A DNA stretch of 50,173 nucleotides from Nanobdellota archaeon (GCA_039714095.1 JBDLJZ010000002.1:1-50173), one strand, 5' to 3'. Counted from the first letter of the stretch, positions 18,163-40,975 are shown. A program made the numbers and translations. The notes: a model not told the origin generated them from the sequence alone.

Positions 18163-18420
18163 TCAATAAATCTTGTCGTGATGTTTAAATCTATTAAAGA
18201 TAAGAATGTTCTTTTCAACTTTGAATATAAGAACAAAACTTCCAATATGAACTCTTTTATAGTCTTTCAGATTTCCCCTAAGATTTTTAAAATGATTGAT
18301 AGAAATAATATCAAGATTAGCAATTTGATTAATTTTTTTTTGAACCGCTTTAAACAATTGAATGTCTTTTCTTTTGAGTTTTTTGAGAGTTTTTTGAATA
18401 AGTGTAATATCTACATTCAT
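18163..18420 (-). CDS. RelE/ParE-family toxin
   Basis: ..YKRVHIGSFVLIFKVEKNILIFNRFKHHDKIY. Start moved to MNVDI (18420), which gives the usual 4-nt ATGA overlap with the antitoxin stop. Confidence 0.65.
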   Translation of the reverse strand: MNVDITLIQKTLKKLKRKDIQLFKAVQKKINQIANLDIISINHFKNLRGNLKDYKRVHIGSFVLIFKVEKNILIFNRFKHHDKIY

Positions 18421-18692
18421 ATTGAATCGCACCAATCATTAAACTTATTCAAAGTCATTGGTTTTATTTCACCAGATTTAAGTTTTTTAAAAGTTTGTAT
18501 AGTGGATTCAACAATTTCCTTAACAATAGATTCTTTAACTTCTCTAAAATCGTCTTCAGGAATTTCAGATATGCCATCAATCAAAGATAATTTTAAATTC
18601 ATTACAAATTGTTTAACAACTTTATCTAATGCTAATTTGAATTCTTCATTAAGTTCAGAAGGCACGTCAACTTTAACAACAACTTCAGTCAT
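18417..18692 (-). CDS. cognate antitoxin (family not recognised)
   Basis: 91-aa acidic protein immediately upstream of, and overlapping, the toxin gene. Confidence 0.5.
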   Translation of the reverse strand: MTEVVVKVDVPSELNEEFKLALDKVVKQFVMNLKLSLIDGISEIPEDDFREVKESIVKEIVESTIQTFKKLKSGEIKPMTLNKFNDWCDSI

Positions 18693-18808: not shown

Positions 18809-19168
18809 ATGGCTAAAAACAAAACAAAAACAAGAGAAATTACAATAAAAGAATCTAAAGGAGCATTTTCATTATTAAAAAAATCTGGAGTATCAAAAAA
18901 AGATTATGATTTTTCAGGAGTTCTCGCTTTAAGACAATTATTAAGTAATGAAAAAGCAAGAATTTTAAATGTTATTAAGACCCAAAATCCCACTTCAATT
19001 TATGATTTAGCTAAAAAACTTGGGAGAGGTTTTAAATCTGTAAGTGATGATATTAAACTTTTAGAGAGGTTTGGATTTATTGAACTCATTGAAGAAAAAA
19101 CAAAAAATAGAATTAGACATCGCCCAGAAATAGTAGTAGATAGTATAATTATTAATATCAAAGTTTAG
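18809..19168 (+). CDS. winged-helix transcriptional regulator (ArsR/MarR-like)
   Basis: ..LSNEKARILNVIKTQNPTSIYDLAKKLGRGFKSVSDDIKLLERFGFIEL.. has an HTH-plus-wing pattern. The ATG is preceded by the family-1 tail ggtgtcctcgct (18797..18808). Confidence 0.55.
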   Translation: MAKNKTKTREITIKESKGAFSLLKKSGVSKKDYDFSGVLALRQLLSNEKARILNVIKTQNPTSIYDLAKKLGRGFKSVSDDIKLLERFGFIELIEEKTKNRIRHRPEIVVDSIIINIKV

Positions 19169-19686
19169 TAATAAACAACAAAATTAATGCTTATCTCACT
19201 ACCACTTCTAAAAAATTCCTGTACAGCACCCTTAGAATTAGATGTTATATTCCCTTCTTGAATAAATAATAATTCTTTACCTCCAGAGAATATTTTTATT
19301 TTCCTCCCCTTTAAAGGTCTGTCTTCTCCAACTTTCCAATACTCTTCAAAAATTTTATTCAATGTTTCTTCTAATATCTCACAAGTGTCTTGTCCATCTA
19401 AGCATTTGTCTTGATTATCACAACTAAATATAAGCTTTTGAACAGATAAATAATCTAAATTATCAGATCTTCTACATTCACTTGTGTGTTGTAAAAATGC
19501 TTGAATAAAACTCTCAATTTCATAACTTTTTATAGTTTCCTTTTCATTATTTCTTAAAGAAATACTCAAAAAAACAAGTAACACAACTGAAACTATAATT
19601 ATTATCATTGCAAATCCCACTATTTCTTCCTGCCCTTTCTTAGACCTCCGACATTCGGTATCCGATATCCAATTTTTATCCATCAT
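19165..19686 (-). CDS. class III signal peptide (type IV pilin-like) protein, 173 aa
   Basis: RRSKKGQ|EEIVGFAMIIIIVSVVLLVFL. The leader contains a G+C-rich patch (ggatatcggataccgaatgtcggaggtc). Confidence 0.55.
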   Translation of the reverse strand: MMDKNWISDTECRRSKKGQEEIVGFAMIIIIVSVVLLVFLSISLRNNEKETIKSYEIESFIQAFLQHTSECRRSDNLDYLSVQKLIFSCDNQDKCLDGQDTCEILEETLNKIFEEYWKVGEDRPLKGRKIKIFSGGKELLFIQEGNITSNSKGAVQEFFRSGSEISINFVVYY

Positions 19687-19751
19687 AACCCTCCATTATG
19701 CAAGTTTTGCGAAGCAACTTGTATGCGCGAAGCGAATGTGTGGGTAAAATT

Positions 19752-20249
19752 TTATCCATCATAACCCACCATTAATTTAACAACTTCACATTTATCATAA
19801 ACTTTTCCCTCAAATAAATCCTTCCAGCATAATGAGACGAAATTTGAATATTCTGATGTAATGTTTGAAGAATAAAGTTTTATAATATCGCAATTAGGAT
19901 AATTTCCTAAATTACACGTCAAAGGTGTTGGACTTTGTTTTCTAATTTCAATATTTGAAACTCCCCAAAAATTAACATATTTTGAAGAACTTTCTTTTAA
20001 CATCATTACTTTGTCTGCATCTACACAATTTATTCTATTAGAGCCAAATGATTCTCCACATGAAAATTCAGGTGAATTAGCAAGTCTTGAAACTAAAAGC
20101 ATTGCGTTTTTTTCTTCAAGTTCTAAAGCAGATTCTCTTAAATTTGAAGTTGATATAGTCAGTACAAACATCCCTGCCAAAACAAAAAACAAAGTAATTG
20201 CCATTAGCATAAATGCCATCTGCTGTATTTTTAATTGTCCTTTTTTCAT
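19752..20249 (-). CDS. class III signal peptide (type IV pilin-like) protein
   Basis: MKKGQ|LKIQQMAFMLMAITLFFVLAGMF. Start moved from TTG 20294 to ATG 20249 because the extension lies inside repeat copy C. Confidence 0.6.
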   Translation of the reverse strand: MKKGQLKIQQMAFMLMAITLFFVLAGMFVLTISTSNLRESALELEEKNAMLLVSRLANSPEFSCGESFGSNRINCVDADKVMMLKESSSKYVNFWGVSNIEIRKQSPTPLTCNLGNYPNCDIIKLYSSNITSEYSNFVSLCWKDLFEGKVYDKCEVVKLMVGYDG

Positions 20250-20260
20250 TTTTTTATTTT

Positions 20261-20356
20261 GAAGGGTTACGCCGAAGTTATTGGAGAGCGACAAATGTTA
20301 AAAACCAATAGCGACTTTCCAATGGCTGAGCAAAAGGAAACCGTAGGTGTCCTCGC
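20261..20356 (+). repeat. G+C-rich structured repeat, family 1, copy C (H2 + tail, + orientation between two minus-strand genes)
   Basis: gaagggttacgcc, then the H2 hairpin (20274..20331), then aaaggaaaccgtaggtgtcctcgc. The last base is shared with the stop codon of the upstream gene. Confidence 0.6.
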
Positions 20357-21282
20357 TACCATAATCTACACTGACTATTTAATTCATTATCATTAATTTT
20401 TTGTGCAATATTCCATACACTTCCAATATTAGCAGAGTCAATTAATCCATTAGCAGAATTACTTAATTGAACCAAATCATTTCCTAAATTTGAATTACAA
20501 CCTCTCTGAGAAATAAATGATTCTTTGTCTTGATAAATTTTAGATAGTTGTTTTATTCTTTTCATAATTCTTTGTAATTGACAATTATAAATTTTTTTAT
20601 CTGAAAAAATTGTAGCATACATTAATGCATCTGTTCTAAAATGCAAAATTTCTCCCTCTTTTTCAACTGTTTGTGCCCCATAATTAACTTGCACATCACA
20701 ATCTTCATAATTAAAACAAACATTTATTTTATTTGATAAATCCTCACAATCTTTTGTAAAAATATTTCCTTGGCTTAGGGTTTCTAACTCTTCTTTAATA
20801 TTTTCTGGTGCATTTAAAAAACAATAATTTTTATTTGAAGATGTTAAATAAATTAAATCTGTAACTTTAAAAGGAAATTCCAAGGGTTTTGAAAAAATGT
20901 AAAATGTTTTTCCTTCTGCATATGCTTCTGAAAAAATATATTTATTCTCAAAGCTTACTTCTACATCTGTTTGCGTCCATTTATCAAAACTTTTTTGAGA
21001 AATTTGAATTCCTTGTTTTCCAAAAACACTTAAGTTATTACATCTGTTATAAATTCTTGTTTCAGCAGGAAAAATAATTGTAGTAGTTTTTCCAACTTCA
21101 AACCCAGTCTCTAAAGGATTCAATAACACTCCGATTTCATTTGCTGTTTTAGCCCCAATAATAGTCTCTTGTGTACTAATTGTTTTTGTCACAGCATAAA
21201 TTGTTAGAGATAAAATCATTGCACCAACAATAATAGCAAAAAGCCAAGCAAAAGATATTTGTAAAAATCCTTTTTTATTCAT
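20356..21282 (-). CDS. class III signal peptide (type IV pilin-like) protein, about 308 aa
   Basis: MNKKGF|LQISFAWLFAIIVGAMILSL. Start moved from TTG 21333 to the internal ATG, which removes the overlap with the upstream gene. Confidence 0.6.
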   Translation of the reverse strand: MNKKGFLQISFAWLFAIIVGAMILSLTIYAVTKTISTQETIIGAKTANEIGVLLNPLETGFEVGKTTTIIFPAETRIYNRCNNLSVFGKQGIQISQKSFDKWTQTDVEVSFENKYIFSEAYAEGKTFYIFSKPLEFPFKVTDLIYLTSSNKNYCFLNAPENIKEELETLSQGNIFTKDCEDLSNKINVCFNYEDCDVQVNYGAQTVEKEGEILHFRTDALMYATIFSDKKIYNCQLQRIMKRIKQLSKIYQDKESFISQRGCNSNLGNDLVQLSNSANGLIDSANIGSVWNIAQKINDNELNSQCRLW

Positions 21283-21292
21283 CTTCTTAGAT

Positions 21293-21886
21293 TTATTTAA
21301 TTGTAACCAATGCTTCTCCATATTGTTTTTCAATTACAAGTTTAATTTTACCTTTTATATTTTCTACACAAAACGGATTATCTCTTAAAATTGTCTTTGC
21401 TAAATCAAGATGTTTAATCTCTTTTGAATTTAATCCTTCTGAAGACCCCCCAGGATAGAAAAACAAATTTTCATGTTCTTGATGTAATTGTTTTAATTCA
21501 CTAAAATAAATTCTATATTTCCCCCTGTCTCCTGCAGGATAAAGAGAGTAATCTGCAAAGCAAACATGACTTATTTTTGAAGGCAAAAAATATTCTTTTT
21601 CTTGAGAACTTTGGGTTCCTTTCCATGCTTTATCAATATCTGTTTGAAGATTGTTTGCAAATTTTGCAATTTGTGCTGTGTCCCCTAAATTAAGAAATTT
21701 TTTAATTGCAAAAAAAGAAAACGAAATAAAAATTATAATTAATATAATTGAAAAAATCATCCCAAAAGACAATTTCATCTGCCCTTGTTTATCACATCTT
21801 TTGCCCTTTGTAAAAATCTTCGAAGAAGATTTTTCGGGGCCTCGTAGAGGTTCTCGCACCTCCTTGGTGTACGCCTGTGGTGTCAT
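21293..21886 (-). CDS. class III signal peptide (type IV pilin-like) protein whose 5' end is occupied by repeat family 2
   Basis: ..CDKQGQ|MKLSFGMIFSIILIIIFISF. The only in-frame start upstream of the KQGQ site is the repeat's own ATG (MTPQAYTKEVREPLRGPEKSSSKIFTKGK); the next in-frame ATG is the Met immediately after KQGQ. Confidence 0.55.
   Translation of the reverse strand: MTPQAYTKEVREPLRGPEKSSSKIFTKGKRCDKQGQMKLSFGMIFSIILIIIFISFSFFAIKKFLNLGDTAQIAKFANNLQTDIDKAWKGTQSSQEKEYFLPSKISHVCFADYSLYPAGDRGKYRIYFSELKQLHQEHENLFFYPGGSSEGLNSKEIKHLDLAKTILRDNPFCVENIKGKIKLVIEKQYGEALVTIK
21802..21886 (+). repeat. G+C-rich structured repeat, family 2, copy 1
   Basis: Hairpin AAAAATCTTC-gaa-GAAGATTTTT (21812..21834), then cggggcctcgtagaggttctcgcacctccttggtgtacgcctgtggtgtcat. 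Confidence 0.65.
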
Positions 21887-21930
21887 TAATAAAAATAGAA
21901 TTTTAAACTTATAAATTTAATCAAAATTAA

Positions 21931-24354
21931 TTATAAAACTTGCTCACTACTTGGTCTTGCAATAATACTACAATCACTAGGCAGAGGAGGATTTCCAAAT
22001 TCATCTTTACATTTAACATAAAATGTTTCTTGTGAATCCCATTCAATAAAATGTTCATCTTCATCAACTGTTTGCAATTCAATACCATCCTCAAATTCAT
22101 ATCTACATCCAATGTCTTCTTGGGTGTTATAAACACACATACCTGATTCATCAGTGATTAATTTAAGATAACCATCTTCTTTATACGCTCTTATAACAAC
22201 AGGTGAGCCAATATCAGTTTCAACATCAAAAGTAATATCTTCAAATACAGCATTTCCTCCAGCATCTACACACATAATAGAATAGGCATAATTCCCGTCT
22301 GCCAAATTTAATTCTTGTGTATGTTGATAAGTCATTTCAACTGGGTTGTATAAAAATTGCACATAACTTAAAGTACCTAATGGTTTGTAAGAACAAAATG
22401 CTTTGCCATCTTCTGCACCTGAGGAAGTTTCAATTTCAAAAAGAACTTGAACAGGAGAAGTTGCATCTTTAACAGTTGTTCCATTTGGTTCTGCAAAATC
22501 AATATAAAGTGGCTGTGTTCCTATCAATGTCAATTTTGTTGATTCTTTATTTGTATTTCCACTTGTATCATTACATCTAAAATAATAATTATTTTCTTCT
22601 CTATCTTTTAATCCTGTAAGTGTTGTACTACACGGATAAACTGTTTGCGCATTTCTAACTTCAAAATTTGATGAACAGTCAAAGTCATTTTCCATTAAAT
22701 TATATCCTTTGTCTATAAAATCCCACTTACAATCTGCAGGTTCATTTATGTAAGCAGTTAAACTTGTATTACTTATATTGTATGCAACAGGAGCGTTATT
22801 AGGAATACTTGTATCAACAATTAAAGGAGCAGTAAAATCTTCTCCCTCTTCAACACAAAATTTAAAAATAAATTCTCCTGTATTTGAATTGCCGTTTGCA
22901 TCCTCGCATCTTACAAATAAACTCATATTAGTTCCTTCTTTTATTACAGGTCCTATTGCTCCTATTGAAGGTAAAATCATTGTATGTGAATGATTGTATC
23001 TTGCAAGAGAATTTGAACCAAAATAAAATGACATTTCTTCATAATTATCTTTTCTTTCAGTATCTATTTTACATGTTGCAGGTTCGTCTAAGCTAACCCC
23101 AAATTTTAATGGGGTGTATGCAGAAATACATCCTTGTTCATCACCCTGATTTTCTACTGGACGAATTATAACACCTCTATCTGGGGGTGACTGCGCATTA
23201 TCAGGAGTGTACACAAAATCTTCGTTTAATGCATCTTCCCAAGGCCTTATTTGAGGTGCTTCAGCATCGTTTCTATTAATCCATGTACAAAGTTCTTCTT
23301 CACTTCCAGGATTTAATAACTCACAACCCTTGCCCAAACTTTTACACTGATATTCACTACATCCAAAAATTTCATTATTACATTCACTGCATTTTGACCC
23401 CCCACTTGGAGCTTCCCAAACAGAACATTCAAATGTTACAGATTTGTCCTCTAAGTCTTTGTAATGATTGATAATATACCACACTGCCACTGCAAAACCT
23501 ATATAAGTGCCTGCATTTCCAGAATAACCTTTATTATATATTTTCATTATGGCATTCACAGTAGTTCCTGCTTGAATTCCTTTTTCCAACCCCTCTCCTA
23601 TTGCAACTGCTTTTTTGTCTTCTTCTCCACCCCCAGCAGCTATTATAATAGTTTTTACACCTGCCGCCAGAGTATATCCTGCCAAAAGATATTGTGCAGT
23701 ATCCATAAAACCTGCTCCTCCAACCACAGTTCCTTCATTATTCTCTAATTTTCCTAATTCTGCCTTATTTTCTACTTTTGCATCTACACCATCTTTTGTA
23801 TACATCCAATTGCCTTTATCTTTATAATAATTTTTTCCTTCGTATTCATCTCCTGATAGAGTAAAAGTTTCACTTCCTGATTTTCCAAGAAATGATTCAT
23901 ACCATGAGGGCGATGATGAACTCTCGCCTGGAGTGTCTGTTCCAGCTCCACCAGTACCTGTTTCTTGTAAAGGAGCGATAGGATAATCTCCAGGTGTTTC
24001 AAATCCTGCAGATGGTTGAGAAGGGATGTCATTAAAACTTGCGGGATTTGGAGTTCCAGAAAGACCTAAGTTTGGGTTTTGCCCTGAAGAAGAGGTTTGA
24101 GATATACCGAGTCTTCTATTTAATTCTTCTTTACCTTTTGTATTAATAGTTTTCCACCCACTCCCATCAAGTTTTTTATATTCATAAGTATTTCCAGAAT
24201 ATCTATATATGTAAGGATCGCCTGGAAAGTTGATTATATCTCCTTCTGTAGCTTCAACAACCCCTACCTCACTTCCAACAGCATAAGAAATTGCCACAAT
24301 TCCTAATAGCAAAATCATTACTTGACACACCCCAAACGTTTTCTTAATTTTCAT
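21931..24354 (-). CDS. 807-aa secreted/membrane surface protein, homologous to the C-terminal half of the 1216-aa protein
   Basis: Signal peptide MKIKKTFGVCQVMILLLGIVAISYA, two mid-protein hydrophobic helices, a Cys cluster CSVWEAPSGGSKCSECNNEIFGCSEYQCKSLGKGCE, and repeated units ending [YF]x[VFI][RK]CxDxxGN. Confidence 0.7.
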   Translation of the reverse strand: MKIKKTFGVCQVMILLLGIVAISYAVGSEVGVVEATEGDIINFPGDPYIYRYSGNTYEYKKLDGSGWKTINTKGKEELNRRLGISQTSSSGQNPNLGLSGTPNPASFNDIPSQPSAGFETPGDYPIAPLQETGTGGAGTDTPGESSSSPSWYESFLGKSGSETFTLSGDEYEGKNYYKDKGNWMYTKDGVDAKVENKAELGKLENNEGTVVGGAGFMDTAQYLLAGYTLAAGVKTIIIAAGGGEEDKKAVAIGEGLEKGIQAGTTVNAIMKIYNKGYSGNAGTYIGFAVAVWYIINHYKDLEDKSVTFECSVWEAPSGGSKCSECNNEIFGCSEYQCKSLGKGCELLNPGSEEELCTWINRNDAEAPQIRPWEDALNEDFVYTPDNAQSPPDRGVIIRPVENQGDEQGCISAYTPLKFGVSLDEPATCKIDTERKDNYEEMSFYFGSNSLARYNHSHTMILPSIGAIGPVIKEGTNMSLFVRCEDANGNSNTGEFIFKFCVEEGEDFTAPLIVDTSIPNNAPVAYNISNTSLTAYINEPADCKWDFIDKGYNLMENDFDCSSNFEVRNAQTVYPCSTTLTGLKDREENNYYFRCNDTSGNTNKESTKLTLIGTQPLYIDFAEPNGTTVKDATSPVQVLFEIETSSGAEDGKAFCSYKPLGTLSYVQFLYNPVEMTYQHTQELNLADGNYAYSIMCVDAGGNAVFEDITFDVETDIGSPVVIRAYKEDGYLKLITDESGMCVYNTQEDIGCRYEFEDGIELQTVDEDEHFIEWDSQETFYVKCKDEFGNPPLPSDCSIIARPSSEQVL

Positions 24355-24683
24355 TTTATCTTTAACATGTCTTTTATTTGTTTATCTATTTCATTTAAAT
24401 GAATCTCTTCTAAATTTCCTAATTTATTTTTGATTTTTCTATAATCAATTATTCTAAGTTGAAACACCAAAGCAATAGAATCTTCATTTAATTTATTCTC
24501 TTTAGAGCTTTTTACATTATAAGTAAAATGATATTTTAATGCAGATTTATTTGTTGTTAGAGGGATAATTGAAACAATATTAGAATTCTTTTCAGAATAA
24601 ATTATAACTGGTCTGCATCCTTGCTGTTCATGACCTTGACCAAACAAATCAACTAAATAAATATCTCCTTTAGCAAATTTCAT
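24351..24683 (-). CDS. mazF: MazF/PemK-family endoribonuclease toxin
   Basis: KGDIYLVDLFGQGHEQQGCRPVIIYS..IIPLTTN. ATGA overlaps with both the antitoxin gene upstream and the 807-aa gene downstream. Confidence 0.8.
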   Translation of the reverse strand: MKFAKGDIYLVDLFGQGHEQQGCRPVIIYSEKNSNIVSIIPLTTNKSALKYHFTYNVKSSKENKLNEDSIALVFQLRIIDYRKIKNKLGNLEEIHLNEIDKQIKDMLKIK

Positions 24684-24886
24684 AAATTTTTTTCAAAGTT
24701 TTTACAAGCTTCATCACTTAAAATCTCCCAAGCATCTAATTCTTTTTTCAATTCAATCTCATTTTTCATGCTCTCTAAATAAAAAGACATAATTGCTTTC
24801 TCTACAACTTCTCTAAAATCAAAGCCTGTTTCTTTAGTCATTGCTTTAATCTTCTCTTCTACTTCATTTGAAATATCAATTTGCAT
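24680..24886 (-). CDS. antitoxin for MazF (68 aa, family not recognised)
   Basis: Small acidic protein with a 4-nt overlap with mazF. Confidence 0.5.
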   Translation of the reverse strand: MQIDISNEVEEKIKAMTKETGFDFREVVEKAIMSFYLESMKNEIELKKELDAWEILSDEACKNFEKNL

Positions 24887-24950
24887 TGTAGTCTAAATTT
24901 TTGAAGATTTTTAAAACTTCCCTCCTTTCTAATTTTTTTAAATTTTTCAT

Positions 24951-26639
24951 CTAATCAAACCCCAAATAATTTTTAATTATATTTATTGTTTTTCTATCCG
25001 TATCTCCACTTAATTTTCCTTGGCAATCTCCCAGCGAAGCACACATTGTATTTTGTGCATCTCCCCATCCAGAAATATAATCTTTGTCCCCATCAAAACA
25101 CTCGTCTCCATCTATTTGTTTATAACCTTTTCTTTGTAAGTCATCTGCCAAACTTTTTTCATAATGAGCTGTGCAACTTGTACTGGCTAAAGAACAAATC
25201 GCAGACTCTTCTTCATTTCCTTCATTTGATTCTTTATCGGACCAAAATTTAAATCCTGGTGCAATTAAAGGAACACATTTTTTTAGAACTTCTCCATCCC
25301 CCATCTTTTCTGAAATCCACTGACAATCTCTAATTGTTGTATCCTCACAATCTAATTGTTCTGTTTGAGCAACACAATCTTGCCAAGCATTAACTCTGCA
25401 CACAGCTGACTTAAAAGTTTTTTGAATATTATTTTCATCAGTATATCTTATTTCAGATTGAATACAAACTTCTGCTTTTCTATCAGCACACGGTTCAATA
25501 GTTACTTCTCCATTATAGCAAACCATTCTAAAAAATCTACTTCCTGGGAGATTATTTTCTGTATTGTCTGATGAGCTACTTTGTTCTGAAATTTCTCCAT
25601 TTATAATTTCTAAAAAAGTTGCTCCTTTTGCAACCTCAGAACTTGCACACCATGTCTCGCCATGTAAATATGTTTCGTCATTTCCATCCCCCCCAATATC
25701 AAATTCACAACCCAAATCTCTGCAAACAAAATCCCCATATATTGGAGATACAGCGTCTTCATTTCTGTTATATTCTTTACAAGTGCTTCCCTCAAAATAA
25801 CCACAATCTCCACAAATCGCTGAACCTGCATTTCCTATTCCATCTGCACAACTAGGTGCTGTTATATATGTCCAATAAATTTTACCTTCTTCTCCATTTC
25901 GAAGTACCTGTCCTGTGCTATCATCAATCATATTTGAGTCATAAACATTCGCAACATTCCCACAACTATCTAAAAAGAAAACCTCATCTCTTCCATCTAC
26001 GCAAGTTGTTTTATCAGTTTCAGCACAATTTGTAGCAAGTTCATCTGCAGTACATAAAAATCCCTCGTGAAAGATAGCTTCACTAATTGCTTGGCATTCT
26101 GAACGAGTTATCATTTTGCAAGTTGTTTCTAACTCTCTTTCAAATACACACGCTCCTTTTGTATCTGGAAATGCACTCGCAATACAAGAAATTTCATTTT
26201 GAATATTTTGTTGAAAATGAGTATCTATTGAATACAAAGAAGCAAAACTTTTACATTTGGCTTGTGTTACAAAAGCTGCTTGGTCTCCAATCGCACAACA
26301 ACCTAACTGACACTGAGGAATATTTACAGAACTACTTTCACTCCAATAACCCATTTCTGAGTCACATTTTAATTGAGGAGTATTTTCCATACATTCACCA
26401 TCTCTTTTGTTTACACATGTTCCAAGAGCACAATAAGAAGTAGAAATACAGGCAGTAGGTTCCATTAAATAATTACTATCACATTCATTTTTATTAGCAT
26501 CAACACACCACGCTCCACCAGTTCCTTCATTATTTGGCTCTGTTTTTTCACAACAATAAGAAATTTCTCCAAGCACACTGTTAGTTAAAAGAATTCCAAT
26601 TAAGAAAATTATTCCAAACATAAAAAAATTATTTTTCAT
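24951..26639 (-). CDS. 562-aa cysteine-rich secreted protein, homologous to the N-terminal half of the 1216-aa protein
   Basis: Signal peptide MKNNFFMFGIIFLIGILLTNSVLG. YCCEKTEP.., CQLGCCAIGDQAAF.., ..SLGDCQG are collinear with TCCEKTTE.., CTLGCCQDLGT.., ..SLGDCAG of 28898..32548. Confidence 0.7.
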   Translation of the reverse strand: MKNNFFMFGIIFLIGILLTNSVLGEISYCCEKTEPNNEGTGGAWCVDANKNECDSNYLMEPTACISTSYCALGTCVNKRDGECMENTPQLKCDSEMGYWSESSSVNIPQCQLGCCAIGDQAAFVTQAKCKSFASLYSIDTHFQQNIQNEISCIASAFPDTKGACVFERELETTCKMITRSECQAISEAIFHEGFLCTADELATNCAETDKTTCVDGRDEVFFLDSCGNVANVYDSNMIDDSTGQVLRNGEEGKIYWTYITAPSCADGIGNAGSAICGDCGYFEGSTCKEYNRNEDAVSPIYGDFVCRDLGCEFDIGGDGNDETYLHGETWCASSEVAKGATFLEIINGEISEQSSSSDNTENNLPGSRFFRMVCYNGEVTIEPCADRKAEVCIQSEIRYTDENNIQKTFKSAVCRVNAWQDCVAQTEQLDCEDTTIRDCQWISEKMGDGEVLKKCVPLIAPGFKFWSDKESNEGNEEESAICSLASTSCTAHYEKSLADDLQRKGYKQIDGDECFDGDKDYISGWGDAQNTMCASLGDCQGKLSGDTDRKTINIIKNYLGFD

Positions 26640-26640
26640 T

Positions 26641-26955
26641 TTATTCTATAATCACCCCCTCTTTTAATGCTTCACTAACTATGCTTATTCTATTTTTCTT
26701 TTTTTCAAATTCTTCAGGAGTATAACAAAGAAAATCAACAGCATAATCTAAATTCCAATAATTATTCATTTTTTTAACCCTTTCAAAAAAATTCATTTTT
26801 TCAAAATCTGGGGCCACAACAATTAGATCAATATCACTATCTTCTGTTGCTTCTCCAGTTGCCTGACTTCCAAATAAAATAATTTTTTGCAAACTAATTT
26901 CATTTACATGCAACATAAAATGTTTAATGAGTCTTATAATTTTTTCTTTACCCAT
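26641..26955 (-). CDS. minimal nucleotidyltransferase (MNT), antitoxin of a HEPN-MNT pair
   Basis: LFGSQATGEATEDSDIDLIVV (GSx9-11 DxD NTase motif). Confidence 0.85.
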   Translation of the reverse strand: MGKEKIIRLIKHFMLHVNEISLQKIILFGSQATGEATEDSDIDLIVVAPDFEKMNFFERVKKMNNYWNLDYAVDFLCYTPEEFEKKKNRISIVSEALKEGVIIE

Positions 26956-27293
26956 TCTAATATTTCTTCTGCATGTTTAATTAAATTATTAATATCCTCT
27001 TTTAAATTTAACTTTCCTTCCGTATCTGGATATCTACTAAACATATACGCAGGATTTAATTCATTACAAAAATTTTGAATATTTTCTGGAGCATTAATAT
27101 CTTTTGAGAGATTTAATAGATTATGCGTCTTAACTAATTTTTTTTGTTCTTTAATTAAAACAGCTTTCAAAGCTTTTTCAGCAGACTGTTGCAATAAAAA
27201 AGCACCTATTTCCAAATAGCCTCCACTAATACTATGTTTAGCACCCTCTAAATCTTTCTCTGCATATTCTATCCATTCTTTATATTCTTTCAT
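26934..27293 (-). CDS. HEPN-domain protein (toxin of the HEPN-MNT pair)
   Basis: 119-aa helical protein. A..FLLQQSAEKALKA..H.L and ..YMFSRYPD.. are HEPN (PF05168-like) patterns. Adjacent to MNT. Confidence 0.8.
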   Translation of the reverse strand: MKEYKEWIEYAEKDLEGAKHSISGGYLEIGAFLLQQSAEKALKAVLIKEQKKLVKTHNLLNLSKDINAPENIQNFCNELNPAYMFSRYPDTEGKLNLKEDINNLIKHAEEILEWVKKKL

Positions 27294-28168
27294 TCTCTAA
27301 TCGCTCCTGATGTAATCCCATAACCTGAAGGCCAAATATAACTACGCGAGGCAAACTGAAATTTCTCTCCAGTGTCTCTGTTAGTTAAAATATAAATTGT
27401 TGTTCCATCTCCTTGTTTTTTCTTTTCAACTTTTAAATCATGATAAAAATTCATATAAGTTGTTGTCTCGCTGTCTCCATATTTTGCTTCAAAATTTAAT
27501 ATACTAATTGCAATGCTAACTAATTCATAAAGATTATTATTCAAAACTATACTAAAGTCCTTGTATCTTTCTGAATCTTCTTTTGTTAATGTTAAAGTGT
27601 GATTAAAATTAGCAACAACTCTTTCAGGAAATAATCTAATTCCCATTTTTCCTAAATTAAGTTTTACATCATAACCTTTTCTTTCGTAACTTTTTTTCAT
27701 TTCTTCAAAACATTCTCTGGATGATTCAGCAATACTGTTTTCTAATTCTTCTTCAATGTGTTGTCTTAAAAACGGTTGTTGCATAACACAAGGTTCATAA
27801 TAATTTGATGTATAACATAAATATTCTAATTTCCCTCCCCCATATAAAAAATAATGTTCAGGATTCAAACTCCCACCATTTGCAGAAATAATACCAATAT
27901 TTTCTTGTATCTGTTCTTCAAGACATAATTGAATAAATTCTGTCGGACTTTTTGCACCAATTCCTAATGTTGTTTGCAACTGAGGATAAAACATATAAAT
28001 AGCAACACCAATCCCAACAATTACAATTGATAAAATAATAAACAATGTAACCTGCCCCTTGTAAACATCTTTGGAAAAGATGTTTCGGGGCCTCGTAGAG
28101 GTTCTCGCACATCCTTGGTGTACACTAAAATATGTGTGTCCTTTTTTGTTTGAATTTTTCTCACCCAT
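27290..28168 (-). CDS. class III signal peptide protein (292 aa), paralog of 32533..33309, with repeat family 2 inserted in its leader
   Basis: ..VYKGQ|VTLFIILSIVIVGIGVAIYMF. EFIQLCLEEQIQENIGIISANGGSLNPE aligns with SFLESCIEEKINEAIDLIAIQGGNIKPE of the 258-aa paralog. Confidence 0.6.
   Translation of the reverse strand: MGEKNSNKKGHTYFSVHQGCARTSTRPRNIFSKDVYKGQVTLFIILSIVIVGIGVAIYMFYPQLQTTLGIGAKSPTEFIQLCLEEQIQENIGIISANGGSLNPEHYFLYGGGKLEYLCYTSNYYEPCVMQQPFLRQHIEEELENSIAESSRECFEEMKKSYERKGYDVKLNLGKMGIRLFPERVVANFNHTLTLTKEDSERYKDFSIVLNNNLYELVSIAISILNFEAKYGDSETTTYMNFYHDLKVEKKKQGDGTTIYILTNRDTGEKFQFASRSYIWPSGYGITSGAIRE
28053..28125 (+). repeat. G+C-rich structured repeat, family 2, copy 3
   Basis: Hairpin AAACATCTTT-gga-AAAGATGTTT (28063..28085), then cggggcctcgtagaggttctcgcacatccttggtgtacac. 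Confidence 0.65.
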
Positions 28169-28247
28169 TTTATATTTTCTCTAAGGGATTTTCGTTTATA
28201 AATATTTTTAATAAAATATGAAACCAGATATCTGATAGCTAATATTT

Positions 28248-28538
28248 TCAGGTTATTTTGGAAAGATATTTTTCTAAATCTTTATAATCTTTTTTTCTAT
28301 CTAAAAGACAAACAAGAATTATTTTTTGTGTAACAATATATATCATTCGAGTTTCTTTTGATTGAATTTTAAGTCTAATTCTAAAAACTTTTGAAAATGA
28401 TTTTGAATAAATTTTTTTATATCTAAATGGATTTTCTTTTATTAGTTGTATTTTATCAGAAATAATCTTTTTTGATTTTTCATCAACTTTTTCTAATTGC
28501 CGAAGAAATGTTTTTGAAGGGATTATTTGGAAATTCAT
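28248..28538 (-). CDS. RelE-like toxin
   Basis: 96 aa. ..FSKVFRIRLKIQSKETRMIYIVTQKIILVCLLDRKKDY. 4-nt overlap with the upstream small gene. Confidence 0.55.
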   Translation of the reverse strand: MNFQIIPSKTFLRQLEKVDEKSKKIISDKIQLIKENPFRYKKIYSKSFSKVFRIRLKIQSKETRMIYIVTQKIILVCLLDRKKDYKDLEKYLSKIT

Positions 28539-28792
28539 CCCAAGAGAATTTTATTTAATTCTTCTTCTGTCCCAAAATCTTTATTTTTTATTGTTTTTAA
28601 AATTAAGTTATCAATTAAATCAATTTCTTTTTCACTAAATGTTTCATCAAATTCATTTGCTTCAAATACTTTCATTCTCATACTTTCTATAGCTAAATCC
28701 TGAATATTTCTGTAACCAAAATTTTCTGCATAATTTTGAGCTGCTTTTAATAAATTCAATGGAATTTTCAGATTAATTTGTTGAGTCTCCAT
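28535..28792 (-). CDS. antitoxin (possible ribbon-helix-helix)
   Basis: QQINLKIPLNLLKAAQNYAENFGYRNIQDLAIESM resembles an RHH strand-helix-helix. Confidence 0.45.
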   Translation of the reverse strand: METQQINLKIPLNLLKAAQNYAENFGYRNIQDLAIESMRMKVFEANEFDETFSEKEIDLIDNLILKTIKNKDFGTEEELNKILLG

Positions 28793-28872
28793 AATATTAA
28801 TAGATATCTATAGATATTTAAACTTTTTGGAAATTCAAAGATAGAGAATAATATTTTTAATAAAAAATAACA

Positions 28873-28905
28873 CTACGCGATTTTTGTCAGAGGCAATTTA
28901 AAAAG
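28873..28905 (+). repeat. fragment related to family 1 (5' half of H1 joined to aggcaatttaaaaa as at the 3' end of copy D)
   Basis: ctacgcgatttttgtcag matches copy A's ctacgcgattttcgtcag at 17 of 18 positions. Overlaps the stop of the 1216-aa gene. Confidence 0.35.
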
Positions 28906-31900
28906 CACTTGGAGAAATTGAAACACATGTTCCAACATTTTCAAGATTATCCTTACACTTAATATAATATGTTTTTTCAGAATTCCATTCAACATAATGC
29001 TCAATTGTTGCTTCAAATCCAGGCTCCATTAATGTTGTAGTATTCATCTCAAAATTGCATTTTTTCAAAATATCATTGTTATAATAACATCTTGATTTTT
29101 TATGCGTTTCAATTCCAAGTAAACTCCCTGAACGATATATAACCGCAATCTCTGGTGAGGTGTTGTCAATTTCTAAAGTGAATACAATACTCTCCTCAGC
29201 CACATTTCCTGTAGAATCTTCACACATAATTGGAATATTATAATCTCCACTTACAAAAAATAAATTTTGAGTATGCATTGTTGTATCAGTATCAAAAAAT
29301 TCTAATTGAGGGTCTAAATCTGAACTTAATAAATCTCCCGAAGGAAAATAACATTTTGCAATACCCGTACCGTCGGCTCCACCAGATGTTGTAACTCTTA
29401 AAGTCATTTCATAATCTCCTGTAGCACTGCTCACCTGATTATATTCTGTAGGTGTGGCAGAAGTAATTTTTAATGTGCTAATAGAAGGATTTATTGTGTA
29501 TTCTTTGTAAGCTATATTTACATTTCCTTGAGTATCATTACATTTGAAATAAAGTTTATTTGGATCACTCGTACTAAGTCCAGTAATATCTGCAAAGTCG
29601 CAACCATATTTTAATCTTGGAAAACAAGAATCATCATCACGAATATATCCTTCACAAAACAAAGATTTAGTCATATCTTCATAATTTGTTGTTTCATCAA
29701 AACTATAACCACATTCAACTAAAGGCTCATTAGCATAAATTTTAGGGCTGTCTAAAGTATCATTTCCAAATATTAAATAACTTCCATCTTCTGGAGAAAA
29801 TTCCTTAATAATTGGAGGACGAATATCTGGAGTTGGATTTACACACATCTGAATATTGTATGCAGTTAATTGTGCGTTTCCTTCGTGTCCTTCACATCTA
29901 ACATAAACATTAAATTCTCCATCTTCACCAAGACAATTATCACTAAAAGAAGCAACTCTAATTTCAAAATTATTTTCTTTTGTCCAAACAAATCCCGAAG
30001 TTGGCCTGCCAATCCAATCTGTTTTATATGATGTCAAATCTGATGGAGCAGTTCCCCAGATACATCTTGCAAATTTGTTTTCTTCATCCTTATCAGTTGT
30101 TAAATTAAAATTTAATAAAGTATTTCCTTCAACACACCCATTCTCATTTGAATTATTTGTGATTATTATTCCTGTTTCAAGTGCACCATTAGATTGGATC
30201 GTTGTTGTTAAATCTCCAGAAAAACTGCCCACATTAAAATTAATAACTGGTGGCGTAGGGTCAAGTTCTTTTTTAACACAAATAACTTCATCTGTTGCAA
30301 CACCTTCTTCTTCAACTAATACTTCACAATTTTTCCCTAAGCTCCAACATTTATATTCTGTGCAAGGGAATTCTCCTTCATTACATTTATCACACTCCTG
30401 ACTTCTTGCAGGAGGTTCCCACGGCTCACACGAAAAACTAACTTCTGACTTTTCTAATTTTCCAATTTTATCACCTTGTTGCCAATTAAATACAACTAGT
30501 TCTATTATGGCTGCAACTATTGTTACAATATAATTAGCATAAATTCCTATTAATCCTCCAACCTGATTTACCTGTCTAAATTTAAGTAAACCTCTACTTC
30601 CTTCATCAAGAGTTTCTTCGCATACTTGTTCTCCTTCTATTTCAACACATTCAATTTCTCCTAATTGGCTATTAATCAGGTTTAGAATAGTAGAACTTGA
30701 AGAACCTAAACTTGAAGCTAAATTTGCAAAGGTAGGAGAATTATTTTCTTCAGGAGTATTATTTATCCTAACATATCTCTCTTTTAAACTATCTTTTCCA
30801 GTATAATTTCCAACAGTATTAACATAACCTGCACAATCTCCCAAACTCACACAAAAATCATTCATCTGACTATAAAATCTCTCTGGATTTTTATCACACT
30901 CTTTATTTGCAATATAATCTAAATAAACTCTTTCTAAAATAAGACACCCCCATATAGGTTCCCAAGCAACACATTTTGCTTTGTATTGTTGAATAATTGG
31001 ACAAGACATTGATGCAAAGCTACAAACACTTTCATCATCTTCTGCTGAATAAATTGGGTTAAATCCTTGAGGATATTTTGGAACACAAACATCAAATTTA
31101 AAAAAATCAACTTCATCATCTTTTACAACATTTATATTTTGCATTCTACAATCTGACTCATCTTCACAATCTTCTACATTCTCTATTCCAAAACAATTTA
31201 ATCCCATATTTGGTCTGCATGTTGCTTCAGTGTAAGAAATAGCACTTTCTCCTTCTCCGATTTCAACAGCATGCTCTCCACAAATATTCTCTCTATAAAC
31301 TCCGCAATTAATTGTTGTTATCTCTCCTTGAATACATGATTTTCTATAATGAGAAGAGCCAGGAATATCTGAAGAAATTTGAACTCCAGTTTCATCATTA
31401 ATATATTCTCCAACCTGTCCTTCATAAACACACCAACTCTCTCCATTTTTCCTCTCTTTATTATTATCTGTTTCATCCACACAGCTTAAATCTGCACAAA
31501 CAAAATTATCCTCTGCAACATGAGTTTCTGAACTATCAACTGGTTTACATGTATTAAATACACTATCACAATTTCCGCATGTATCTAAATTATTTGGATT
31601 ATTTACATCAATTGTGCAAACTTGCGAACCTACTATTTTTACAAATCCTTGATTCCAACTTTCATCTTTTAATGCAGGAGTATTTCCTTCATAAACATTT
31701 TCCATATTTCCACAAGAATCAAACCAATAAATTTTTTCATCTAAACAATTAATACTCTCTTGTTTAGTACAAATTGTGTCTAATCCTTCATTAGAACATA
31801 AACTTCCTTCATGAAAAGTCCTACTTTCTATACATTCTGCCCCACTATTAAATTCACAATTATTTTCTCCATTTACTTGATAAACACAAGCACCATTTGC

Positions 31901-32548
31901 ATCTGATGAAATATCTCCACATAGTTCTTCAGGTATTGTATCATCAAAAATTCCACCTTGCAAATCACACCAAGCTTGCGAATTGTATTGTGTATTTGTT
32001 CCTAAATCCTGACAACAACCAAGAGTACATTCATCTGCTTCATTAAACCATTCTCCATTATTTTCTTCACAAGTAATTCTAGGAGATAGGGCAGAGCATA
32101 AACCATCTGTACCAATACAATCTCCCAATTTACAAAATGTTGTTGAACCACAATCTGATTGCACATTTGTAGTATCACAATCCTCTTGCAATACATCTTC
32201 TTGACAAAATGCTCCTTCTGTTGTTTTCTCACAGCAAGTTGTCGCCGAAACAAAACCAATTTGATTTATTGATAAAAATCCAACTACTAAGTTTAAACTT
32301 GACTTAATTATTTTTTTAGAAATTTCACTTATCTCTGAATTAATTTTTATTTCTTCACTATTAAGATTATAACTTTGAGCAATAGTAAAATTAATTAGTA
32401 AAATTATTTGAAATATACTAAAAATTAAAATTATTTTTCTGCCCTCAGTAAAAATTTTTGCAGAAGATTTTTCGGGGCCTCGAAGAGGTTCTTGTGCTGG
32501 GAGCTTTAGCGAGGCAGTATACGCCTGTGGTGTCATCCTATAATACAC
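28898..32548 (-). CDS. 1216-aa giant cysteine-rich surface protein (a fused equivalent of the 562-aa + 807-aa pair)
   Basis: The N-terminal half is collinear with 24951..26639 and the C-terminal half with 21931..24354 (FSCEPWEPPARSQECDKCNEGEFPCTEYKCWSLGKNCE). The track start is GTG 32548. ATG 32536 (MTPQAY) overlaps the upstream stop as ATGA and may be the real start. Confidence 0.75.
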   Translation of the reverse strand: MYYRMTPQAYTASLKLPAQEPLRGPEKSSAKIFTEGRKIILIFSIFQIILLINFTIAQSYNLNSEEIKINSEISEISKKIIKSSLNLVVGFLSINQIGFVSATTCCEKTTEGAFCQEDVLQEDCDTTNVQSDCGSTTFCKLGDCIGTDGLCSALSPRITCEENNGEWFNEADECTLGCCQDLGTNTQYNSQAWCDLQGGIFDDTIPEELCGDISSDANGACVYQVNGENNCEFNSGAECIESRTFHEGSLCSNEGLDTICTKQESINCLDEKIYWFDSCGNMENVYEGNTPALKDESWNQGFVKIVGSQVCTIDVNNPNNLDTCGNCDSVFNTCKPVDSSETHVAEDNFVCADLSCVDETDNNKERKNGESWCVYEGQVGEYINDETGVQISSDIPGSSHYRKSCIQGEITTINCGVYRENICGEHAVEIGEGESAISYTEATCRPNMGLNCFGIENVEDCEDESDCRMQNINVVKDDEVDFFKFDVCVPKYPQGFNPIYSAEDDESVCSFASMSCPIIQQYKAKCVAWEPIWGCLILERVYLDYIANKECDKNPERFYSQMNDFCVSLGDCAGYVNTVGNYTGKDSLKERYVRINNTPEENNSPTFANLASSLGSSSSTILNLINSQLGEIECVEIEGEQVCEETLDEGSRGLLKFRQVNQVGGLIGIYANYIVTIVAAIIELVVFNWQQGDKIGKLEKSEVSFSCEPWEPPARSQECDKCNEGEFPCTEYKCWSLGKNCEVLVEEEGVATDEVICVKKELDPTPPVINFNVGSFSGDLTTTIQSNGALETGIIITNNSNENGCVEGNTLLNFNLTTDKDEENKFARCIWGTAPSDLTSYKTDWIGRPTSGFVWTKENNFEIRVASFSDNCLGEDGEFNVYVRCEGHEGNAQLTAYNIQMCVNPTPDIRPPIIKEFSPEDGSYLIFGNDTLDSPKIYANEPLVECGYSFDETTNYEDMTKSLFCEGYIRDDDSCFPRLKYGCDFADITGLSTSDPNKLYFKCNDTQGNVNIAYKEYTINPSISTLKITSATPTEYNQVSSATGDYEMTLRVTTSGGADGTGIAKCYFPSGDLLSSDLDPQLEFFDTDTTMHTQNLFFVSGDYNIPIMCEDSTGNVAEESIVFTLEIDNTSPEIAVIYRSGSLLGIETHKKSRCYYNNDILKKCNFEMNTTTLMEPGFEATIEHYVEWNSEKTYYIKCKDNLENVGTCVSISPSAF
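32440..32536 (+). repeat. G+C-rich structured repeat, family 2, copy 2 (diverged middle)
   Basis: tgccctcagtAAAAATTTTtgcagAAGATTTTTcggggcctcgaagaggttc...acgcctgtggtgtcat. Confidence 0.6.
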
Positions 32549-33309
32549 CCCCTAACTGCAAACCTAAATAACTTATCTATTTCTCTATTTTTTACACTAT
32601 AAATTTTTTCACCTTCGCTATCAATAAATAAACTAATTTTTATGTCAGGATAAATTAACATATAAGAATTTATATTAAATTCACAATATTGTGCTTCAGA
32701 ATTCAAAATACTATGAACAATAAGAACCAACTCATATAAATTAGTATGAATAATGGTTCCGATGTTTTGCATTTTAGAGCTTTCATCGTTTTTTATTAAA
32801 TCCAATTCCCCATCTAATATTAATTTTACTCCTTCAAAATTTAATTTAACTTCAAATCCATTATAAATTTTTTTTACATCATAATTTTGTTTTTCTAAAT
32901 TTTCTGCTAATTTATTAAAGCAAATTTTTACATCATCTCTAATATAATTTTCAATTTCTGTTTCAATGTGGCTCGTTAACATAGGAACTTGATTAATACA
33001 TCTATCATAAGAATTTTGATTATAACATAAATAAGAAATATTTACTGGCTCAGCTTCGTCTTTAAATTTAAATCTTTTTTTTAATTCAGGTTTAATGTTC
33101 CCTCCTTGTATCGCAATTAAATCAATTGCCTCATTAATTTTTTCTTCAATACATGACTCTAAAAAAGAATTTGGATTAATTTCTTTTCCCCCACCAATAT
33201 TTGGAATTAATCCTTGTCTAAAAAGAAAATAAAATGCAATTGCCACAACAATTAAAATCCCCGCAACAATAAAAATCGTTAATTGCCCCTTATTATTTGC
33301 ACCCTTCAT
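32533..33309 (-). CDS. class III signal peptide protein (258 aa), first gene of the array
   Basis: MKGANNKGQ|LTIFIVAGILIVVAIAFYFLF. Confidence 0.6.
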   Translation of the reverse strand: MKGANNKGQLTIFIVAGILIVVAIAFYFLFRQGLIPNIGGGKEINPNSFLESCIEEKINEAIDLIAIQGGNIKPELKKRFKFKDEAEPVNISYLCYNQNSYDRCINQVPMLTSHIETEIENYIRDDVKICFNKLAENLEKQNYDVKKIYNGFEVKLNFEGVKLILDGELDLIKNDESSKMQNIGTIIHTNLYELVLIVHSILNSEAQYCEFNINSYMLIYPDIKISLFIDSEGEKIYSVKNREIDKLFRFAVRGCIIG

Positions 33310-40933: not shown

Positions 40934-40975
40934 ATCCAAAGGAATTTATTTAAACTCTTTTTTTCTTAATTGTCT

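Follow-up and report, generated by a model that had tools for sequence, protein, structure and literature searches.

A conserved archaeal gene cluster encoding putative class-III-signal proteins and giant cysteine-rich surface proteins, with a possible role in attachment

The 50-kb window analysed here (the whole stretch of DNA, 50,173 nucleotides, from Nanobdellota archaeon GCA_039714095.1) carries a cluster of nine core genes, p258, g1216, p292, c562, c807, p197, p325, p180 and p173, which encode six prepilin-like proteins and three large cysteine-rich surface proteins. The window is AT-rich (GC 24-34%) and encodes the archaeal markers FtsZ, Spt5, L11, prefoldin, SepF and PCNA, together with an intein-containing fused primase, a LysRS-type aminoacyl-tRNA synthetase and an S-layer-like protein. 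Its source is a reduced, Pacearchaeota-like DPANN archaeon, in agreement with the initial annotation, which had supposed a reduced archaeon. Fifteen open reading frames (ORFs) do follow one another on the minus strand from 33309 to 19165, as that annotation described; of its single fifteen-gene array, however, nine genes stand as the core and the other six are three inserted toxin-antitoxin pairs (Table 1).

Table 1. Features of the cluster and its surroundings, in window coordinates; the last column gives the N-terminal motif kept in orthologues
Feature	Position	Strand	Description	Orthologue N-terminus
p258	32533..33309	-	258-aa prepilin-like, MKGANNKGQ-LTIFIV...; partner of the 1216-aa giant	[KR]GQ-[VL]TIFI
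g1216	28898..32536	-	giant surface protein; 1212 aa from ATG 32536
p292	27290..28168	-	292-aa prepilin-like p258 paralogue, ...YKGQ-VTLFIIL; partner of the split giant	[KR]GQ-[VL]TIFI
c562	24951..26639	-	secreted Cys-rich protein, 41 Cys; counterpart of the g1216 N half
c807	21931..24354	-	counterpart of the g1216 C half
p197	21293..21886	-	small prepilin-like, KQGQ-MKLSFGMIFSI...; 20 orthologues; 2 conserved Cys	[KR][GAS]Q-MKLSFGMIFSI
p325	20356..21333	-	prepilin-like, F/Y/L at +1, MNKKGF-LQISFAWLFAI; likely start 21282; 7-8 conserved Cys	KKG[FYL]-ExSFAWIFAI
p180	19752..20294	-	small prepilin-like, MKKGQ-LKIQQMAF...; likely start 20249	[KR][GA]Q-LKIQQMAF
p173	19165..19686	-	small prepilin-like, KKGQ-EEIVGF...; 4 conserved Cys	[KR][GA]Q-EE[IM]VGF
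x119	18809..19168	+	HVO_A0114-family winged-helix, PF25212 1.9e-16; convergent with p173
S-layer-like protein	15284..17734	-	816 aa; S_layer_C 8.7e-6; neighbour beyond x119
Putative antitoxin + ParE/RelE-like toxin	28248..28792	-	85 aa + 96 aa; 4-nt overlap; ParE_toxin E 1.1e-3
HEPN + MNT nucleotidyltransferase	26641..27293	-	119 aa + 104 aa; HEPN 1.6e-28, NTP_transf_2 1.3e-13
Putative antitoxin + PemK/MazF toxin	24351..24886	-	68 aa + 110 aa; PemK_toxin 3.6e-20
Repeat copy 1	21802..21886	-	gives ATG and 36-aa leader of p197; fold z -2.9
Repeat copy 2	28053..28127	-	inside 39-aa leader of p292, different frame; ends at Y-K-G-Q codons
Repeat copy 3	32440..32536	-	gives ATG and leader (MTPQAYT...EPLRGPEKSS) of g1216

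The three large proteins belong to a single family. The full length of c562 aligns to residues 87-586 of g1216 (27% identity, E 8e-42), and the last 550 residues of c807 to residues 652-1204 (29% identity, E 5e-45); judged from these alignments, the 1216-aa protein corresponds to the 562-aa and 807-aa proteins joined in one chain, through gene fusion or fission. The genes p258 and p292 are likewise paralogous (36% identity, E 9e-47). Because the giants form one family and p258 and p292 are paralogues, we read the array as the tandem duplication of a two-gene module, a pilin-like protein of 260 aa followed by a giant, in which the second copy of the giant has become two genes. Most related genomes likewise have a fused giant in the first module and a split one in the second, where the pair of c562 and c807 is the common state. 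The TGA stop of p258 overlaps the ATG of g1216 (ATGA), as it does in a relative locus (L003); the longest ORF of g1216 begins at a GTG at 32548 (1216 aa). Downstream of both modules lie four tightly packed small pilin-like genes.

As the initial annotation noted, the large proteins are rich in cysteine, with 68 of 1216 residues in g1216 (5.6%), 41 of 562 in c562 (7.3%) and 22 of 807 in c807 (2.7%), compared to 2.2% over all long ORFs, and about 45-50 cysteines are invariant in an alignment of 29-56 homologues of the giant family. The motifs CCEKT, LGCC and CSECNNEIFGCSEYQC quoted earlier are present, and the unit of the [YF]x[VFI][RK]CxDxxGN type occurs four times in c807 and three times in g1216 by regular expression, with a variant, VYVRCEGHEGN, found by reading. 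From its N-terminus, g1216 comprises a Sec-type signal, a Cys-rich N half, a central hydrophobic, Gly-rich hairpin, a Cys knot and four immunoglobulin (Ig)-like domains; c807 comprises a signal peptide, a low-complexity region, a hydrophobic hairpin, a Cys knot (CSECNNEIFGCSEYQC) and four Ig-like domains, every one of which ends with the ...C.D..GN motif. The N-termini of the giants resemble Sec-type signal peptides by eye (an h-region, then ...AQ-S), and the central hydrophobic region consists of one to several segments, varying across the family.

The AlphaFold model of the giant (residues 17-1216, mean predicted local distance difference test, pLDDT, 78.6) predicts a beta-rich, Cys-rich N half, which covers roughly residues 90-590 with pLDDT values largely between 70 and 90. 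A spacer of low confidence separates it from two helices (model residues 633-651 and 657-672) that span the Gly/Ala-rich hydrophobic region; after these come a small Cys knot (CxPWxxP...CxxCN...CxEYxCxSLGxxC) and four beta-sandwich domains (pLDDT about 90), each with a terminal ...C.D..GN strand. The predicted hairpin topology would put both halves of the protein outside the cell. Foldseek searches against PDB and BFVD returned generic tandem arrays of Ig and fibronectin type III (FN3) domains only (E about 1e-11), among them PTP-delta, NCAM, cadherins, the GhpA grappling hook, and phage tail and FN3 proteins. Structural comparison thus places the C half among Ig/FN3 arrays and leaves the Cys-rich N half without a match; sequence profile searches with the N half found no relative either. 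No Pfam, NCBIfam or PDB-sequence profile family was found for any core component, which upholds, for all but the generic C halves, the earlier statement that the large proteins match no characterised family. Neither DUF2341 nor any other above-threshold Pfam domain was detected in g1216, c562 or c807; Big_13, Big_3_3 and DUF4625 match the giants weakly (13-18 bits vs a Pfam cut-off of 27), and a few giant homologues carry precomputed PF19077 hits.

The six smaller proteins share a different feature, the N-terminal motif ([KR]-G-Q or -F, then a hydrophobic helix) for which the initial annotation had singled them out, and all six motifs quoted there were found. A FlaFind-like regular expression, applied to all six frames of the window, gave six hits, five of them within the locus; five of the six quoted motifs pass, and KQGQ-MKLSF of p197 lies just below the hydrophobicity cut-off. 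The sixth hit is a 604-aa protein outside the cluster, with the N-terminus MKKGV-LLFIL. The motif lies far beyond chance, because it is kept in the orthologues of all six families (14-74 per family), in up to 74 other genomes. Among 52 sequences of the p258 family, Q9 is invariant and G8 is kept in at least 90%. All six families have a class-III-type layout: a short basic leader, typically of 4-13 aa, Gly or Ala at -1, Gln at +1 (Phe, Tyr or Leu in one family) and a helix of about 20 aa. EppA substrates of Methanococcus have a 5-13-aa leader ending in Gly and a conserved +1 Gln (PMC3875500), and in five of the six families leader length, -1 Gly and +1 Gln agree with this description, whilst no conserved +5 Glu and no DUF361 were detected. 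The N-terminal 50-85 residues are related between the families (hhalign probability 91-96%) and the C-termini differ; a common N-terminus with a divergent C-terminus is, as far as sequence comparison goes, the pattern of pilin sets. Every component of the cluster has conserved cysteines, mostly in even numbers, which speaks for an extracellular character. Within the small genes we also observed a 28-nt direct duplication (19671-19698 and 19747-19774, 93% identical), by which the 3' end of p180 (...GTGGGTTATGATGGATAA) recurs as the ribosome-binding site and start region of p173 (GGAGGGTTATGATGGATAAAAA).

The cluster is widespread among tiny, probably host-dependent archaea. A search of a collection of 5.8 billion proteins with g1216 returned 153 homologues, all unnamed or "hypothetical" and nearly all of about 1100-1400 aa, the named ones coming from metagenome-assembled genomes of Pacearchaeota, Woesearchaeota or Nanoarchaeota. 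The profile of the p258 family gathers 6366 clusters at 50% identity, nearly all of about 250-270 aa, and a scan of one genome per GTDB species yielded 502 confirmed loci. Synteny was determined in 83 loci whose ORFs were called and labelled by BLASTP. The order of the cluster is kept across Pacearchaeota and Woesearchaeota, with core proteins 25-60% identical between species-level genomes, and extends into a super-locus, o437(-) o604(-) primase(-) PCNA(+) p258 giant p292 c562 c807 p197 p325 p180 p173 x119(-) S-layer(+), which is complete in at least 10 loci (for instance L009, L014, L016, L031, L046, L062, L072 and L076). The gene x119, a candidate regulator of the cluster, stands at the same place in 14 related loci, and the S-layer gene is syntenic in 12. 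Castelle et al. (2021) described Pacearchaeota-specific modules of protein families without functional prediction, mostly membrane-bound or extracellular (PMC8204110); a limited literature search found no published description of this cluster.

These data bear on whether there is a functional system at all, rather than a variable island of fast-evolving surface genes and mobile elements. Three toxin-antitoxin pairs and three copies of a repeat within 14 kb, in a locus that shows tandem duplication and fission, would fit such an island. Nevertheless, the nine-gene order and its flanks are kept across hundreds of species-level genomes, the inserts differ between genomes whilst the core does not, and neither p258 nor the giant has relatives in viral contigs, on which ground a viral origin of either was rejected. 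Because the order is conserved and viral relatives are lacking, the cluster is best regarded as chromosomal, vertically inherited and lineage-wide; the synteny analysis effectively refutes the island, which retains hardly any probability.

We tentatively favour, at close to an even chance, the interpretation that the cluster is a lineage-wide surface module for attachment built on class-III-signal (type-IV-pilin-like) proteins, in its Pacearchaeota/Woesearchaeota version. Starting from what is observed at these loci, i.e. gene content, paralogy, synteny, conservation of the motif and the cysteines, the Ig arrays and the absence of nearby machinery, we infer cleavage, complex formation, a filament and adhesion. 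The N-terminal helix would insert the six pilin-like proteins into the membrane, where a class III signal peptidase accepting +1 Gln, as Methanococcus EppA does, would cut after the conserved Gly or Ala. The conserved G-Q speaks for such processing, since its invariance would be superfluous in a simple signal anchor. The four small proteins would form a stoichiometric, minor-pilin-like complex, either a short pilus or pseudopilus or the base of one; their genes are tightly packed and almost never split by inserts, which favours this interpretation. Each 260-aa protein would pair 1:1 with the giant encoded directly downstream. The giants would be exported by Sec and stay anchored in the archaeon's own membrane through the hydrophobic hairpin at their centre, exposing a disulfide-rich domain at the N-terminus and, as an arm, the four Ig-like domains. 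The adhesin-like layout, with four AlphaFold-predicted beta-sandwiches that match cell-adhesion Ig/FN3 arrays, is consistent with this role. Together, these components would make an attachment apparatus for host cells or surfaces, whose ATPase, platform and peptidase, if used, would be encoded elsewhere.

Several observations weigh against the attachment module. As the initial annotation had stated, no pilus assembly machinery is encoded in the window: none of its ORFs of at least 90 aa has a Pfam match to T2SSE/FlaI, TadC/FlaJ or an A24 peptidase. The absence of such machinery nearby is a conserved property of the locus in the 10-kb flanks of related loci. Across 99 loci with these flanks, 1.5 Mb in all, no protein above 250 aa carried a Walker A motif of the GxxGSGKT[TS] type, and seven polytopic flank proteins proved by Pfam to be LysE, AI-2E, PMT_2 and ABC-type proteins, thus transporters or glycosyltransferases, with no A24 peptidase. 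In the MacSyFinder definition, an archaeal type IV filament (TFF) system comprises an ATPase, a platform, a pilin and a class III peptidase, of which the ATPase and platform are not co-localised at the locus. He et al. reported components of type IV pili (T4P) to be missing in DPANN (bioRxiv 10.1101/2020.05.14.094862). Here the literature conflicts, since T4P ATPases without identifiable cognate pilins have been described in 'nanoarchaea' (PMC4858521), and pilin loci often lie apart from the machinery; according to a 2026 preprint, TFF system 1 occurs in "a few DPANN".

Further adverse points come from the proteins themselves. The window proteins match neither Pilin_N (PF07790), Class_IIIsignal/DUF361 (PF04021) nor the NCBIfam equivalents at E up to 0.1, and 56 orthologues of the four small families are without a pilin model match, apart from one Pilin_N hit at noise level (E 0.056). 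Positions +2 to +5 hold polar residues in the four small proteins, which have no Glu at +5. Of the six, p258 was modelled, and AlphaFold (pLDDT 89.2) predicts for it a transmembrane helix at residues 7-31 and a separate, compact alpha/beta domain, joined by a disordered linker (32-45); this is not a pilin fold, as the linker parts the helix from the globular domain, and Foldseek against PDB gave no match at E<0.01 (best E 0.012, TM-score below 0.2). The type IV pilin-like character proposed for these proteins is therefore borne out by the class-III-type motif, but neither by the curated pilin models, for all six, nor by the predicted fold of p258. On this model, p258 finds its closest precedent not in a canonical pilin but in proteins such as those of the bindosome, which undergo class III processing without being pilins. 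A kinship of p258 with PepSY/YpeB, prompted by a DPANN-specific cluster in Makarova 2019, was dropped as no PepSY match was found. The giants possess their own signal peptide and a predicted membrane hairpin, which speaks against a site at the tip of a pilus; since they are self-anchored in this manner, the tip adhesin of the initial annotation is doubtful, and they look like membrane-anchored surface proteins. Lastly, near-universal conservation in a neighbourhood of housekeeping and S-layer genes is as compatible with a constitutive component of the envelope as with an organelle of adhesion.

Such a component, a non-filament complex of the envelope or S-layer in which the K-G-Q helices are uncleaved signal anchors and no type IV machinery takes part, might for example anchor or space the S-layer or organise a pseudo-periplasm. 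It would account for the fact that, in about 80 related genomes, no gene for an ATPase-type protein, a platform or a peptidase was found close to the locus, for a lineage-wide, single-locus cluster set among housekeeping genes with the S-layer gene as conserved neighbour, for self-anchored giants, for a p258 model consisting of transmembrane helix, linker and globular domain, and for the missing pilin family matches and the reported lack of T4P in DPANN. A plain anchor, on the other hand, gives no reason for a near-invariant -1 Gly/Ala and +1 Gln in six divergent families, the short basic leaders ending in G-Q match the description of EppA substrates (PMC3875500), and four small co-translated proteins with a common N-terminus resemble minor-pilin sets. 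We consider the envelope complex the main rival, less likely than the attachment module but seriously to be reckoned with.

The surroundings of the cluster suggest a second alternative, a transport pseudopilus acting as a piston like that of the type II secretion system (T2SS) or Com, for uptake of DNA or nucleotides or for secretion of the giants. The cluster adjoins PCNA in 55 of 84 loci and primase in 44 of 84, the four small, co-translated genes for pilin-like proteins are reminiscent of the GspH-K and ComGD-GG sets, and DPANN rely on scavenged nucleotides (PMC8204110), a lifestyle that uptake would fit. However, no ComEC/ComEA, secretin or ATPase occurs in the flanks, the linkage to PCNA may be simple inherited synteny, and the large Ig-array proteins are hard to explain in this way, so that we give the pseudopilus a slim chance. 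The primase-like protein of the window (889 aa, 34373-37042, +) has a weak DNA_primase_lrg match in its C-terminal part and is interrupted by a LAGLIDADG-domain intein, its orthologues in related loci being mostly of about 430-550 aa. Beside it lies a type II restriction-modification system (37118-38790), in which the genes for a restriction endonuclease of the MjaI type (4.6e-43) and for an N6/N4 DNA methylase (6.9e-37) stand back to back. Next come two secreted, Cys-rich proteins of 604 aa (39119-40933, +) and 437 aa (40970-42283, +), each with a C-terminal transmembrane anchor and no Pfam match; the pair stands divergently beside the primase in 32-35 related loci, and both proteins may belong to the same surface repertoire as the cluster.

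The central hydrophobic region of the giants admits another reading, a device targeting the membrane of the host, whose Gly-rich hairpin would insert like a translocator or fusogen and open a cytoplasmic bridge, with the pilin-like proteins as conduit or anchor. The region is variable, Gly/Ala-rich and placed between two large ectodomains, DPANN symbionts are known for intercellular connections, and one weak family-profile match over the hairpin is to AopB, a translocator of the type III secretion system (E 0.032). That match is not significant and was set aside as probably compositional; moreover, no fold of a fusogen or pore-former was matched, Foldseek giving Ig arrays only, and in the split version c562 is without any hydrophobic segment. 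The device accordingly has a very slim chance. We assign a low probability to a new kind of organelle specific to Pacearchaeota and Woesearchaeota, in which class-III-signal proteins dock disulfide-rich giants that engage the host envelope, or even insert into it, by their Gly-rich hairpin and Ig arm, with no conventional ATPase-driven pilus; if true, this would be the long-sought host-contact or bridge machinery of the uncultured DPANN majority.

The junctions of the cluster differ in how often they carry inserts. The matches that define the toxin-antitoxin pairs are above the Pfam cut-off for HEPN (99.7 bits), NTP_transf_2 (51.6 bits) and PemK (72.6 bits), and weak for the ParE-like toxin (20 bits vs a cut-off of 23). 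Small-ORF inserts occur at the p292-c562 junction in 19 of 49 related loci (39%), at the c562-c807 junction in 18 of 32 (56%) and at the g1216-p292 junction in 11 of 48; those between the four small genes have them in 0/17, 1/17 and 2/15. The 111 inserted ORFs of related loci include 21 MNT, 10 HepT, 8 HEPN, 4 ParE, 1 PIN and 1 HicA, with toxin-antitoxin inserts in L003, L006, L043, L044, L047, L054, L063 and L065, and an insert of the HEPN/MNT type, which the window has at the p292-c562 junction, recurs there in related loci. The p292-c562 and c562-c807 junctions are therefore recurrent hotspots of toxin-antitoxin insertion. An overlapping pair of genes for 91 aa and 90 aa lies between the S-layer gene and x119 (18163-18692, -); the end of the 90-aa protein, ...RVHIGSFVLIFKVEKNILIFNRFKHHDKIY, looks RelE/ParE-like by eye, and the pair may be a fourth toxin-antitoxin system, unconfirmed by Pfam, in which the 91-aa partner gave no meaningful match.

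A second kind of insert is a repeat of about 80 nt, present in three copies (Table 1). Some leaders in the cluster are unusually long because this structured repeat has been inserted in-frame. The copies share an exact 22-nt core, GAACCTCT[AT]CGAGGCCCCGAAA (3 in the window vs 0 expected), followed by a variable hairpin and an end in TTACWARGGGCA, and the hairpin shows compensatory changes at four base pairs. The same core lies upstream of a g1216 orthologue (L005:402-497) and in 15 metagenome contigs (copies L084-L098). The repeat is found within long ORFs, read without a stop in each of the three sense frames, and its hosts elsewhere include the catalytic domain of GluRS, CysRS, a GTPase and other ORFs. 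Since the host frame continues on both sides in GluRS, the GTPase and CysRS, the length of the element is a multiple of three in them, and an intron is unlikely. A conserved peptide MTPQAYT...EPLRGPEKSS was rejected, as p292 uses another frame of this DNA and copies elsewhere are read in three. Likewise rejected were a known RNA, with no Rfam family at the gathering threshold or at E up to 10, and a viral origin, with no copies in viral contigs. We propose that three copies came to lie in one locus because cleaved leader peptides would be tolerant landing sites. Rickettsia palindromic elements are selfish repeats inserted in-frame in protein genes, and the repeat is analogous to them as a short, structured, multi-copy element within ORFs including housekeeping genes; unlike them, it resides in a DPANN archaeon and its sequence is unrelated. 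Recurrent toxin-antitoxin insertion and such an in-frame repeat both bear on the tolerance of reduced archaeal genomes towards selfish elements.

Of the uncultured archaea in groundwater and sediments, Pacearchaeota and Woesearchaeota rank with the most abundant, and nine co-inherited "hypothetical" genes, with N-termini of the cleavage type and adhesin-like giants, make the cluster a concrete, lineage-wide candidate for their missing surface apparatus. It offers targets for antibodies, cryo-electron tomography and proteomics, and hidden Markov models built from it would take several large families out of the dark matter of DPANN.

The families of the cluster are undescribed, but pilin-like proteins combined with Ig-repeat surface proteins are a known kind of system. 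The Epd pilus of Methanococcus maripaludis and archaeal TFF 'system 1' share with it the short Gly-ending leader with +1 Gln, several pilin-like genes in a row, large extracellular proteins alongside and machinery that possibly lies apart; the clade-1 model of Makarova (2016) comprises at least five minor pilins and two large adhesins. In contrast to Epd and 'system 1', our cluster is without DUF361/Class_IIIsignal, Pilin_N and +5 Glu, its giants are without the PilY-like DUF2341, no ATPase, twin TadC or EppA lies in the locus, the two 260-aa 'pilins' have a predicted novel alpha/beta domain, and all components are Cys-rich. By analogy, the four coupled small genes, with only the N-terminal helix in common and beside an adhesin-like protein of more than 1000 aa, may be compared to the priming complex of bacterial type IVa pili (FimU-PilVWXE with PilY1) and the GspH-I-J-K tip complex of T2SS; unlike these, the archaeal giants have a Sec signal, a membrane hairpin and neither a beta-propeller nor a vWA domain, and homology is undetected. 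From PilY1-like or DUF2341 tip adhesins (arCOG03508-type) they differ in the absence of DUF2341 and in the central helical hairpin predicted by AlphaFold. The Sulfolobus bindosome also places class-III-processed proteins of non-pilin fold in a surface assembly that is not a long pilus (PMC4858521); its subunits, however, are sugar-binding and encoded with ABC transporters, and it depends on a dedicated ATPase/platform pair, features that our cluster does not show. Finally, with four tandem beta-sandwiches ending in ...C.D..GN and strong Foldseek matches to Ig/FN3 proteins, the giants resemble Ig-repeat adhesins of the Big_13 and Big_3_3 type, from which they are set apart by sub-threshold Pfam scores, extra conserved cysteines in each domain and fusion to a unique 500-aa Cys-rich domain and a hairpin.

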